Part shown: one piece after another, positions 21,007-23,197 of the stretch
Layout of the letters: each line of letters starts with the position of its first letter
Numbering within the stretch: the first letter of the stretch is position 1
IMG/VR virus record: IMGVR_UViG_3300032225_000617
Location: 1 to 30,939 of that record
Length of the DNA: 30,939 nt
Source: a virus
Taxonomy: Duplodnaviria; Caudoviricetes
Reading direction: 5' to 3' (one strand)
Position numbers and translations under genes: made by a program
Notes under the pieces: model-generated
Told to the model about the DNA's origin: nothing
The model's database searches: none
What the model saw: only the letters and a program-made list of their open reading frames with translations

Positions 21007-21014
21007 GATAAGTA
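21007..21014 (+). promoter_or_regulatory. Candidate late promoter (GATAAGTA)
   Basis: Variant of the recurring NNTAARTA motif, 5 nt before the ATG at 21020. Confidence 0.5.
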
Positions 21015-21019
21015 GTACT

Positions 21020-21592
21020 ATGCCAAGTCCACAGAAAAACAAAGGTTCAGGATACGAAAGAGAAGTTGCAAAATTTCTATCAGAGTTATACGGAGAAAGT
21101 TTCATCCGTGCTCCTGGATCTGGCGCTTATGTGGGTGGCAAGAATCAAGCCAGAACTCAATTCTTACATGAGGGACAGATTCGTTCTTTTAAGGGCGACA
21201 TTGTTCCGGGACAGAGTTTCAGCAAAATGAATGCAGAGTGTAAGTTCTATGCAGACTTTCCTTGGCATCTGTTACTTACAGGTGAATGCAAACAACTTGA
21301 TTCGTGGCTAGAACAGCTACTTGATGTAGAAGAAACTGACGATTTAAATATTCTGTTTATGAAATTTAATCGTAAAGGTCAATATGTCGCTGTACAAGGG
21401 AAACTAACATGGAAGGCAGATAACTGCATTTTCTATAGTAGCCCAACACACGGTGATTGGGTCATCATGGAACATTCTAGCTTTTTTCAAAACAATGCAG
21501 AATTAGTAAAAACATATTCAAGCACAACAATCGACACCACGTCAACTCTTAATACAAATATAAACGAATTTCATAAACAATTAGTCGGCTGA
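21020..21592 (+). CDS. PD-(D/E)XK nuclease, Hjc-like Holliday junction resolvase
   Basis: KNKGSGYEREVA..L, R.PGSGA, GDI and AECK, followed by W.EQ and LFMKFNR. This is the layout of Hjc-like phage resolvases. Confidence 0.75.
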   Translation: MPSPQKNKGSGYEREVAKFLSELYGESFIRAPGSGAYVGGKNQARTQFLHEGQIRSFKGDIVPGQSFSKMNAECKFYADFPWHLLLTGECKQLDSWLEQLLDVEETDDLNILFMKFNRKGQYVAVQGKLTWKADNCIFYSSPTHGDWVIMEHSSFFQNNAELVKTYSSTTIDTTSTLNTNINEFHKQLVG

Positions 21593-22031
21593 GTTGTCAG
21601 TCCTCCTTGAGATTGTACAGATTGTGCTGTGCCGTCAGATTCTGGAGTATGCATGTTAGCAATAACATGGAACACCGAGAAGGCTCTCGTCAAAGCGAAC
21701 CTTCAATGAGTCTATAGCTACTCCATTTTGATGCTATAGAACATGCGTTGCAGAATGAAACACTAGAGTGCGTAATTCAACTACAGACCAACAAACCCTA
21801 CAGGGCAACCGGTGGCGAACAATAACATAAAGACGTTGATTGTTCGGGTAAAAATGGCAAGGATGACGGTCATGGCATGTCACCATTGGTAGTGCTTAAA
21901 TAGCACTACCATGGCTTCTAATCGGCATGATATATCCGATGAGTTATTAGATAAAAACAATACTTAAGAATAGATTACCGTAAAGATAAGAACGAGTGAT
22001 AACGAGTTCTTAGAAGAACGTAAGTTCTTCT
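21587..22031 (+). ncRNA. Candidate large structured ncRNA (or structured ssDNA origin element), family unrecognised
   Basis: About 480 nt with no long ORF. It holds about 10 hairpins, GNRA loops (GCAA, GTAA) and three long-range complementarities; see findings. Confidence 0.6.
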
Positions 22032-22070
22032 CCCCAAAGAAACAACAACTTGATAAATGAACCGTTCCAA

Positions 22071-22259
22071 TTAAAAGAATGGCAATTTCGTATTCTTTGT
22101 AGTTTCTAAGTTACTTTCAATAATAGCGGTTATGGCATTTCTTTCGTCATTGCTCATATTAAGGATATCTTCATAGGATGCTCCTCCCCTCATATACCAT
22201 GACATTTTAAGTGCTCCTTTTCTTATATCAGAGCACTCTTGTTCCATACCATCTATCAT
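22071..22259 (-). CDS. gp51-like baseplate/tail assembly chaperone, possibly expressed as the frameshifted extension of the upstream gene
   Basis: Short ORF (MSWYMRGGASYEDILNMSNDER) immediately downstream of the gp26-like gene. The frame stays open upstream to the slippery site. Confidence 0.6.
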   Translation of the reverse strand: MIDGMEQECSDIRKGALKMSWYMRGGASYEDILNMSNDERNAITAIIESNLETTKNTKLPFF

Positions 22260-22294
22260 TCGCTTAATCCCCTCGGAACCAAGGAGAAGAAGCC

Positions 22295-23122
22295 TTAGTC
22301 GAAAAAATCAGATATATTGATGTTTAGTGATTGTTGATGTGTGTGACTGCAATGACTACATGTAATGTCTAAAGGTTTTAGTTCTGTTGTTTTACGCAAT
22401 TCAATGTTCTTTTCTTTGATAAAGTTATGAGTATTTTTATCACATTGTTGTAGGAATTCATTTATAAATTCTTTATCAAAAACTGTTGCTTCTGGGGTTT
22501 TGATATACTCAATTGTTTCTATCAACAATTCAGTAGTGAGGTCATTAATGCTTGCTATTAATTGACTTGTTTTTGAATTCTTTAAATCAACATCTTCAAT
22601 TCTGTCTATGTCCAATAGAGTACGTTGAATCTCAAATTGCTTTTCATTTGCTTTACTAACTTCTTTATACGTCAAGGGTCTAAATTTAATTTTTAACTCA
22701 CCTATTGTCACTGGAGTGTTATAGTCACCAGGTGTAAAAGTTCCCAACAATCCTGACAGATTAACATCAAACTTACTTTCTTCCTTACATTCTGGACAAG
22801 TAGAATCAATCTCCATTAATTGACCATTAGTAGCAATTTTAATAGCAACTAATATTGGATCTAAATCAATGTTCAGTAATTCCCAGGGTCTTTTGATTGA
22901 TGGAACACAACTTTTGATGATTTCTGTTACTGCTACCCCATTGAAAAGTGCATCAGGAGTTCTGCTTGTTATCTCATCAATAGCAGACATTGGATATATT
23001 GGTAATTCTCCGCTTTCAGGGAATTCAATAGCACCTTCACTATATCCTACACCCCCGCTTGGTAGTTTCAAATATAATGCTGGGCGGCGAAAGAATTGTC
23101 GTAATGGATTATCTTGAGTCAT
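22295..23122 (-). CDS. gp26: Baseplate hub assembly protein, gp26-like
   Basis: P..YLKLPSGG, D.ILVAIKIATNG, two CxxC motifs (CPEC, CSHC), IKFRPLTY and a C-terminal DFF are features of gp26-like proteins. Confidence 0.7.
   Translation of the reverse strand: MTQDNPLRQFFRRPALYLKLPSGGVGYSEGAIEFPESGELPIYPMSAIDEITSRTPDALFNGVAVTEIIKSCVPSIKRPWELLNIDLDPILVAIKIATNGQLMEIDSTCPECKEESKFDVNLSGLLGTFTPGDYNTPVTIGELKIKFRPLTYKEVSKANEKQFEIQRTLLDIDRIEDVDLKNSKTSQLIASINDLTTELLIETIEYIKTPEATVFDKEFINEFLQQCDKNTHNFIKEKNIELRKTTELKPLDITCSHCSHTHQQSLNINISDFFD
22301..22307 (-). promoter_or_regulatory. Candidate -1 ribosomal frameshift heptamer T TTT TTC
   Basis: The sequence GAT TTT TTC GAC TAA ends the gp26-like ORF, and the -1 frame is open into 22259..22071. 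Confidence 0.65.
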
Positions 23123-23155
23123 TTGGGTTCCTAAAAAAATGGTAAGATTATGAAT

Positions 23156-23187
23156 ACTAAATACAATTAGTACCGAAAGTATTTATA
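23156..23187. promoter_or_regulatory. Face-to-face late promoter candidates: ACTAAATA (+, 23156-63) and TATAAATA (-, 23187-80)
   Basis: Located in the 75-nt spacer between the divergent gp26-like and tape-measure genes. The - strand copy is the exact T4 late consensus. Confidence 0.6.
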
Positions 23188-23197
23188 ACATAAAATT

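Follow-up and report, generated by a model that had tools for sequence, protein, structure and literature searches.

The window, that is, the whole stretch of 30,939 nucleotides that was analysed, came from a T4-like jumbo phage according to its gene content. Completeness of the record was estimated at 9%, and close relatives of 352-367 kb were 100% complete. On the plus strand the genes were arranged in the order late sigma factor, SbcD, SbcC and a PDDEXK_15/RusA-like nuclease, followed by a gap. Baseplate genes were located on the minus strand before this plus block, and the gap was followed by a baseplate hub gene on the minus strand, then by the portal and protease genes. The gap (21593-22070, 478 nt) was the only long gene-free stretch, as a first-pass annotation of the same DNA had reported, with the next longest being 108 nt. 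The GC values of that annotation were reproduced (0.44 over 21601-21900 and 0.227 over 23123-23197), and every sequence string quoted in it was found in place.

The nuclease gene (21020..21592, plus strand) encoded a PD-(D/E)XK protein of 190 aa, a RusA/Hjc-like Holliday junction resolvase (PF24608, E 1e-24; phrog_244), which had a 42% identical relative in the cultured phage PA5oct. A search of solved structures with the nuclease alignment gave nothing below E 0.08. A late-type promoter, ATAAGTA (21008..21014, plus strand), was located 5 nt before the resolvase start codon. Among 84 loci, ATAA[AG]TA was present within 40 nt of the nuclease start in 74, in 61 of them at exactly 5 nt, and a late-type promoter lay 5-7 nt before the start in 73; in all three whole relatives ATAAATA was the top word before genes. 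From its sequence context the resolvase transcript would be leaderless and would read through into the RNA, and co-transcription with the nuclease, as proposed earlier, is probable given the late-type promoter before the nuclease in most loci. Neither a sigma-70 promoter nor an intrinsic terminator was found above chance in the window. A DNA box, GAC-N5-GTC (21533..21545), was observed 48-95 nt before the CTCC anchor and could be a binding site; it existed in 92 of 93 distinct loci, with one to four loose matches per genome. The box was inside or just behind the resolvase frame, and was doubled in some loci.

A structured element of about 340 bases, predicted to be RNA, occupied 21587..21929 of the plus strand, with approximate ends and a 5' end possibly a few bases further upstream. 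Of 80 close loci found via the protein, all 80 carried the element behind the nuclease gene, and a second, alignment-based scan, which partly overlapped the first set, again placed it after the nuclease in 80 of 80 loci. A search with a 3' pattern gave 119 stretches, the total being estimated at about 230; among the 80 with long flanks the nuclease was directly upstream in 71, and the other 9 were cut off there. Only a single copy per genome was present in five of five genomes. As the first-pass annotation had said, no Rfam family could be assigned: no match reached the gathering threshold and nothing real appeared at E up to 10. Models of group I/II introns, RNase P, tmRNA, SRP, GOLLD, ROOL and OLE had no match in the window, and a tRNA/tmRNA search of the window was empty. 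By DNA no match to the window's element was found in cultured phages, with chance matches only for two distant elements, and one exact 3' pattern was absent from 185,579 cellular genomes. This RNA was not described in the literature searched. In the supplement of PMC10690425 (Fremin et al. 2023) the tried motifs were absent from the files searched, with two large files, which may hold them, lying outside the search. Judged from sequence, this is a real, strongly covarying and uncatalogued structured element.

The fold was derived from a structural alignment of 63 sequences less than 93% identical, with helices taken from mutual information and RNAalifold. The resulting model had 87 pairs, of which 61 showed two-sided (compensatory) changes in 855 cells, compared with 43.7 pairs in shuffles; 95.8% of cells were paired vs 81.1% in shuffles, and the slid model was at most 44% paired. 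The 5' domain (21587..21669, plus strand) contained helices 1-5, which were 92-100% paired, and was composed of a hairpin at 21587-602, a CTCC/GGAG helix (21603-06/21644-47) around 21611-36, and a GNRA hairpin at 21652-69. The core multiloop (21673..21814, plus strand) was closed by helix 21673-77/21810-14 and contained 21679-704, 21706-44, 21747-52/21804-09 and 21753-78; helices 6-9 and 11 were 97-100% paired, and only helix 12 (21753-78), where the alignment was poor, fell to 70.5%. Many unpaired bases of the core were invariant. Two pseudoknots were revealed on the plus strand. Pseudoknot 1 (21787-89 with 21847-49), which crosses core helices and the 21817-45 hairpin, was 98.4% paired with all three pairs compensatory (APC z 21.6). 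Pseudoknot 2, between the loop 21723-28 and 21852-57, was 96.3% paired with five of six pairs compensatory (APC z 20.4, 19.5 and 13.4). A terminal hairpin (21883..21914, plus strand) was located between the two repeat copies described below; it was 97% paired and mostly invariant, a U-tract was absent behind it and no terminator was called.

The earlier proposal of a large, plus-strand, pseudoknotted element thus held in all these respects, except for which pseudoknots form. Its long-range pairings TCCTTG/CAAGGA, CCGTCA/TGACGG and TACTCCA/TGGAGTA had to be given up, with a two-sided change in one of 19 pairs and as high a score in 500 of 500 shuffles. Most of its local stems were retained, five of the six tested being 93-100% paired, and only ATCGG/CCGAT (21921-40), paired at 52.7%, was lost. 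The hairpin it drew at 21816-46 was recovered at 21817-45 (97% paired, 10 of 10 pairs compensatory). For the stem at 21676-704, where two alternatives had been offered, GAAGG/CCTTC was kept (100% paired, four of five pairs compensatory) and CGAGA/TCTCG was replaced. The invariant CCTCCTT was also considered as an anti-Shine-Dalgarno sequence and rejected, since it pairs locally and becomes CTCT/AGAG in 3 of 63 rows. Likenesses to group I and group II introns, RNase P and T-loop structures were judged by eye and were unsupported.

The plus strand folded better than shuffles (z -3.11), but so did the minus strand (z -4.84), and energy alone therefore carried no strand information. The strand was given by the alignment, in which many G-U pairs and GNRA loops were found on the plus strand, again in agreement with the first reading. 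UG was observed at three pairs in 45, 16 and 14 of 63 rows, and the hairpin at 21652-69 had a GNRA loop in 47 of 63 rows, with A-T closing pairs. Since these features belong to the plus strand and point to RNA, we infer that the structured element is RNA.

A short same-sense repeat was identified at the 3' end of the element. Copy 1 (21868..21879, plus strand) is predicted to be a single-stranded RNA anchor, and the template strand of copy 2 (21920..21929, plus strand) would be its landing site. Positions 21870 and 21922 covaried as the same base, with GG in 49 and TT in 14 of 63 rows. In a thinned set of 105 rows from the window's family the two positions were equal in 94 (GG 64, TT 19, CC 10, AA 1) and differed in 11. 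On a tree built from the RNA body without the repeat copies, TT at both positions required 13 changes, at least 8 of them forced by well-supported branches. In divergent members the whole word was altered on both sides, for example to AGCAAT, CTGCATGT or CGGTAA. Among 20 rows of the window's family with an unusual copy 2, 15 matched at five or more bases (8.1 expected), and the other 5 had no 5-nt match.

The same rule was found in the distant family, where a shared word of at least six bases existed in 100 of 105 rows, vs 29% with swapped partners. Of the in-register rows, 83 of 87 were identical (16.4 expected), a count for which entry required three matches and which left out 18 rows, most of them also sharing a word; without any filter the two words were identical in 58 of 58 rows, with eight word types. 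A switch with a third strand was considered as the cause of this covariation and rejected because no third column tracks the copies in either family: in the window's family none was found over about 140 nt on the upstream side and 200 nt on the downstream side (132 rows; MI 1.08, next 0.41), and in the distant family none either (MI 0.89, all others 0.33 or less). Copies that agree in the same sense, with no third strand involved, are what would be predicted if RNA of copy 1 paired with the template strand of copy 2. At flank mismatches an upstream G over a downstream A, which equals a G-T wobble on the template, was seen 59 times vs 4 for the reverse; at 21868-69 the alternative to G/A was mostly G/G and never A/G. 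This lean could be an effect of base composition. U/C mismatches showed no lean (18 vs 14), and a conserved CTC/TCT between the matched blocks had no in-register pairing. Besides, iteron-like arrays of short repeats containing AGGC were observed upstream of the element in some lineages (L374:3480-3680, L407:3500-4150).

Behind the element, an AT-rich spacer (21941..21990, 24% GC) is a candidate unwinding element; such a spacer was extreme in three and moderate in five of eight genomes. It was followed by a tandem G-A hairpin of the DNA mini-hairpin type (21987..22012, plus strand) and a second hairpin (22012..22031, plus strand), whose loop, C(GTAA)G here, was C(GAA)G in the majority of relatives. 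On the plus strand, a hairpin with a C(GNA)G or C(GNNA)G loop was present in 126 of 128 rows of the window's family, compared with 1.1 in shuffles, and in 85 of 93 rows of the distant family, compared with about 1. On the minus strand a mini-hairpin was found in 35 of the 93 distant rows, and only in 3 of the 128. The strict twin pattern occurred once, beside the element, in six of eight genomes (on the minus strand in one), and was not found in the other two. Loop type thus changed, being GNRA within the element and C(GNA)G past its end. Loops of the C(GNA)G type are far stabler in DNA, and are found at the priming sites of G4 and RSF1010 (PMC13037366). An inverted pair, CCGTAA/TTACGG, flanked the twin hairpins in many relatives. 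A conserved ATAAATGA motif at 22053-22066 of the window resembled a late promoter and pointed into the end of the hub gene. At that end (22295-22311, minus strand) a T-run slippery site was located before the stop, with a further frame behind it (22071-22294).

The gene upstream of the element was variable. In the distant family (77 loci, 69 with an upstream gene) the nearest upstream gene encoded a SegE-type GIY-YIG protein in 45 loci and the resolvase in 6. RNase HI took this slot in one lineage of nine loci and in L433; in genome G007 the sole RNase HI gene directly preceded the element, RNase HI also lay beside the syntenic gap of phage Phosso, and it was absent from 9 of 10 genomes. Resolvase and GIY-YIG genes were mutually exclusive in eight of eight long contigs. 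In G007 the RNA was about 3 kb from the resolvase, in L424 and L388 it was upstream of the resolvase, and the resolvase of phage SCTP-2 had only 11 nt behind it. Overlap of the element with the nuclease stop codon, noted earlier, was true here, where the stop overlaps the first hairpin, but was seen in only 10 of 59 distinct loci and is incidental. Because the slot swaps between unrelated nucleases and the stop overlap is not conserved, a fixed partnership with the nuclease is unlikely. The bias of the slot toward nucleases is notable. SegE-type GIY-YIG and PD-(D/E)XK genes were alternatives in the slot after SbcC (G006 vs G001-G003 and G007-G010; L417 and 53 other loci), which suggests that the GIY-YIG protein may be a stand-in junction nuclease. 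The PHROGs label of its family, 'NAD synthetase', is probably wrong.

More distant relatives were searched with models, patterns and profiles. The core model R1, run on 79 more distant loci, gave 21 strong matches and none in 56; in many of the unmatched loci the same twin hairpins were preceded by a gap richer in GC. A core pattern derived from distant loci was found in 120 stretches, 40 of them with short flanks only, and about 1,500 stored stretches were estimated to carry it; among 114 distinct ones, twin hairpins were present in 86 and a hub gene nearby in 61. Among 178 distant loci, 12 were matched by the window's 5' domain (best E 1e-6), in every case 170-280 nt ahead of the core, and L494 could be read against the window's element part by part. 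No distant locus was picked up by profiles built from the P6, core and tail of the window's element, and in reverse a whole-length profile of the distant family did not reach the window's element. As profiles missed in both directions, kinship rests on the 5' domain, the shared motifs and their order. On such sequence likeness, the element is a member of a jumbo-phage superfamily.

This superfamily touches a catalogued motif. Polynucleobacter-1 (RF01718; Weinberg et al. 2010, PMC2864571) made up the 5' part of the element in 5 of 20 and 11 of 20 distant loci chosen for the test, and belongs to the superfamily of the window's element by synteny and by downstream parts, since the core motif, 3' repeat module and twin hairpins of these loci are shared with forms that carry the window's 5' domain; its row in the table of PMC2864571 gives no function. 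The window's element has another 5' domain, and the Rfam model of 141 positions lacks the core, knots and repeat. With the RF01718 covariance model (cut-off 37 bits) no match was found in the window, none of five window-family genomes was over the cut-off, and seven tested distant loci with the window's 5' domain had no match; the window shares this 5' domain with loci having the core pattern common to RF01718-bearing loci. Among cultured phages, PA5oct and Phosso had a gene-poor gap at the same place with hairpins similar by eye. The core model R1 had no match in SCTP-2, PA5oct or Phosso and the profiles also missed them, so homology of their syntenic gaps is by eye only. All four published ncRNAs of PA5oct were elsewhere than this gap. 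The PA5oct region L083:2479-3991 (about 75.7-77.2 kb), whose gap lies at about 75.9-77.1 kb of NC_071039, contained four tiny annotated ORFs of 38-50 aa, which may mask a long non-coding element; by eye, a loop resembling P6, a strong hairpin and twin hairpins with G-A pairs could be recognised on its other strand. The gaps of L348, L359, L364, L373 and L379 had further divergent structured elements at the same locus, none of which matched our models; the first four also had no match in Rfam.

Position in the genome was examined in eight long contigs. The element was 4.6-9.9 kb from the main gene-strand divergence in all eight, and the minimum of total GC skew was 0.8-8.1 kb from it in seven. 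Nearness to the strand divergence reflects one inherited gene order and does not amount to eight tests, and skew tracked gene strand in these contigs. Co-oriented genes exceeded opposed genes in GC skew in one of eight genomes and in TA skew in one of eight, with only 25-62 opposed genes in seven genomes. The position data neither show nor exclude an origin. Polymerase B, DnaB helicase and a 5'-3' exonuclease were encoded in five of five genomes. No account of the replication start of T4-like jumbo phages (300-500 kb) was found in the literature searched.

The conserved, doubly pseudoknotted fold is likely a non-coding RNA. In the reading which we prefer, while giving it slightly less than an even chance, this RNA would act in cis at an RNA-primed, ColE1-like replication origin, either priming synthesis or opening the strands. 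Transcription would start at the late-type promoter ahead of the resolvase gene or at one belonging to the element itself. Copy 1 (21868-79) would be held unpaired by the knotted body and the last hairpin, and once the polymerase passed copy 2 (21920-29), it could pair with the template DNA there. This hybrid, of about 9-10 pairs and a bulge of two bases, would be the nucleus of a persistent R-loop, which would grow into the AT-rich stretch. The displaced plus strand might then fold into the G-A/GNA mini-hairpins, by which helicase or primase would be loaded, a nuclease could trim the hybrid or cut the branch, and the phage family B polymerase would extend. Such a role had already been guessed at in the first pass, and the guess gained support. 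Evidence for the whole reading, which we hold at nearly even confidence, comprises the same-sense covariation, the wobble-tolerant lean of mismatches, the DNA-type loops, the single copy, the nearness to the gene-strand divergence, the RNase HI neighbour in some lineages, the replication genes of these phages and the precedents of ColE1 and T4. Against it weigh the late-type promoter, the absence of RNase HI from 9 of 10 genomes, the lack of gene-independent skew in most genomes, the U/C mismatches without a lean, the unpaired CTC/TCT, and the rows in which the copies differ at the key position or have no 5-nt match. The sole promoter found being late-type, it fits a primer less well; moreover, an anchor of 8-10 bases is weak, and many invariant core bases are not obviously needed by a primer.

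In ColE1, a long folded RNA II is transcribed toward the origin, an upstream stretch of it pairs with the downstream template, and the displaced strand loads the helicase (PMC5043065, PMC4412123); for this, pairing between rG residues in the RNA and a run of dC in the template is required (PMC4412123). The element resembles this in being a folded, putative RNA that lies upstream of the putative start site and runs in the same direction, and its same-sense covariation fits RNA-template pairing, which here is a prediction. It differs in that no kinship of sequence or fold was seen, a variable word of 7-10 bases replaces the G run, the phage has its own replisome, priming is putative, and antisense RNA I was not found: no RNAI-family match was present in the window and no minus-strand promoter over the element. 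The T4 origins oriF and oriG, from a phage of the same kind, combine a promoter, a transcript and an AT-rich unwinding element, but their promoters are of the middle type, compared with only a late-type one here, and the account of T4 origins in PMC4412123 describes no large conserved RNA fold. Priming sites of G4, St-1, alpha3 and RSF1010 ssiA and the N4 promoter hairpin have C(GNA)G/C(GNNA)G loops on the would-be single strand (PMC13037366), as here, where they are twin, have tandem G-A pairs and stand behind a large RNA. The element thus lies outside every tested family, and would work like a known kind if the primer reading holds.

Other explanations were weighed against the primer. The copies could instead meet in a symmetric, like-with-like RNA-RNA contact within a free, abundant structural RNA (a scaffold, sponge or RNA-only oligomer, like GOLLD and ROOL), the hairpins being its tail or a separate element. 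Large phage-associated RNAs do form RNA-only complexes (PMC12286853), the two copies occupy equivalent positions within or next to small loops, G-G, U-U, C-C and A-A were all seen at 21870/21922, and the core has many invariant unpaired bases; but identity over at least seven consecutive bases in many word types is more than one symmetric pair explains, and the DNA-type loops and minus-strand hairpins behind the element do not fit, so that we regard this as unlikely. Like GOLLD, ROOL and OLE the element is large, intricate and phage- or environment-derived; it differs by having no Rfam match, being smaller, and standing in single copy at a fixed core-gene locus outside a tRNA cluster. Distinctly less probable is that the copies are binding sites of one phage protein, as initiator-like DNA repeats or for a dimer on RNA, with this protein, or else gene conversion across the hairpin, keeping them alike. 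Direct repeats at fixed spacing around a strong hairpin, the short repeats upstream in several lineages and the upstream box in 92 of 93 loci would suit such a protein, but the paired switch recurred at least eight times among close relatives, too often for a change of protein specificity, and it is difficult to imagine how gene conversion would alter one base where the contexts are offset by two bases.

The element as RNP partner or guide of the adjacent nuclease, with copy 1 as a possible short guide to its own locus, was an early proposal that lost support and is now quite improbable, since the same RNA family was found behind GIY-YIG, PD-(D/E)XK or RNase HI genes, three unrelated folds. 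Pseudoknotted RNAs adjoining a nuclease gene are known in OMEGA systems (omega RNA/HEARO, for TnpB/IscB) and as the bridge RNA of IS110, where same-sense covariation with DNA marks guide pairing to the opposite strand. The link was indeed unbroken in the window's clade (80/80, 71/71 untruncated pattern loci, 80/80), the slot usually held some nuclease, and resolvase and GIY-YIG excluded each other in eight of eight genomes. Yet the RNA stood about 3 kb from the resolvase in G007 and upstream of it in L424 and L388, SCTP-2 left 11 nt behind the resolvase, and neither a variable guide nor transposon ends were seen. Strict linkage of the OMEGA type was absent (of 69 distant loci 6 had the resolvase upstream, and of 59 distinct loci 10 had the overlap), the neighbour is not TnpB, IscB, IsrB or a recombinase and switches from one unrelated fold to another, and the element lacks mobility. 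A new or group I/II-derived catalytic RNA, which would cut or join RNA or DNA at copy 2 with copy 1 as internal guide, would account for the size, two pseudoknots, invariant single-stranded core bases and guide-like repeat, but ribozyme and intron families had no match at E up to 10, no gene is interrupted and no intron-encoded protein is nearby, making it very improbable. Least credible, at a very slight chance, is a fold made entirely by single-stranded DNA, with no functional RNA at any stage. The DNA type of the hairpins behind the element would suit this, but its body has two pseudoknots, numerous G-U pairs and, in 47 of 63 rows, GNRA loops closed by A-T pairs, and sister forms contain a catalogued RNA motif.

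If the primer reading is extended to the superfamily, a widespread jumbo-phage RNA class may exist in which a built-in guide of 7-10 bases to its own template strand, on a double-pseudoknot scaffold, opens the origin, while the nuclease slot (resolvase, GIY-YIG or RNase HI) supplies the cut. This would be a third, independent kind of RNA-primed origin, with Polynucleobacter-1 as its orphan fragment, and we hold it tentatively, somewhat short of an even chance. If true, it would give context and a candidate job to the orphan RNA motif of 2010. A single-copy RNA at a core locus with a two-site compensation rule makes the question of replication start directly testable. Even without the origin reading, the RNA family is large and covaries strongly, and its two knots and unusual rule of same-sense repeats make it well suited to structure determination.

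Another structured RNA was observed in these phages. A permuted tmRNA, separate from the element, was present in two of three whole relatives, and permuted (two-piece) tmRNA genes were found in five of eight jumbo-phage contigs (G002:146402-146878, G003:83288-83696, also G006, G007 and G010), with a tRNA call with a CTA anticodon adjoining that of G003.
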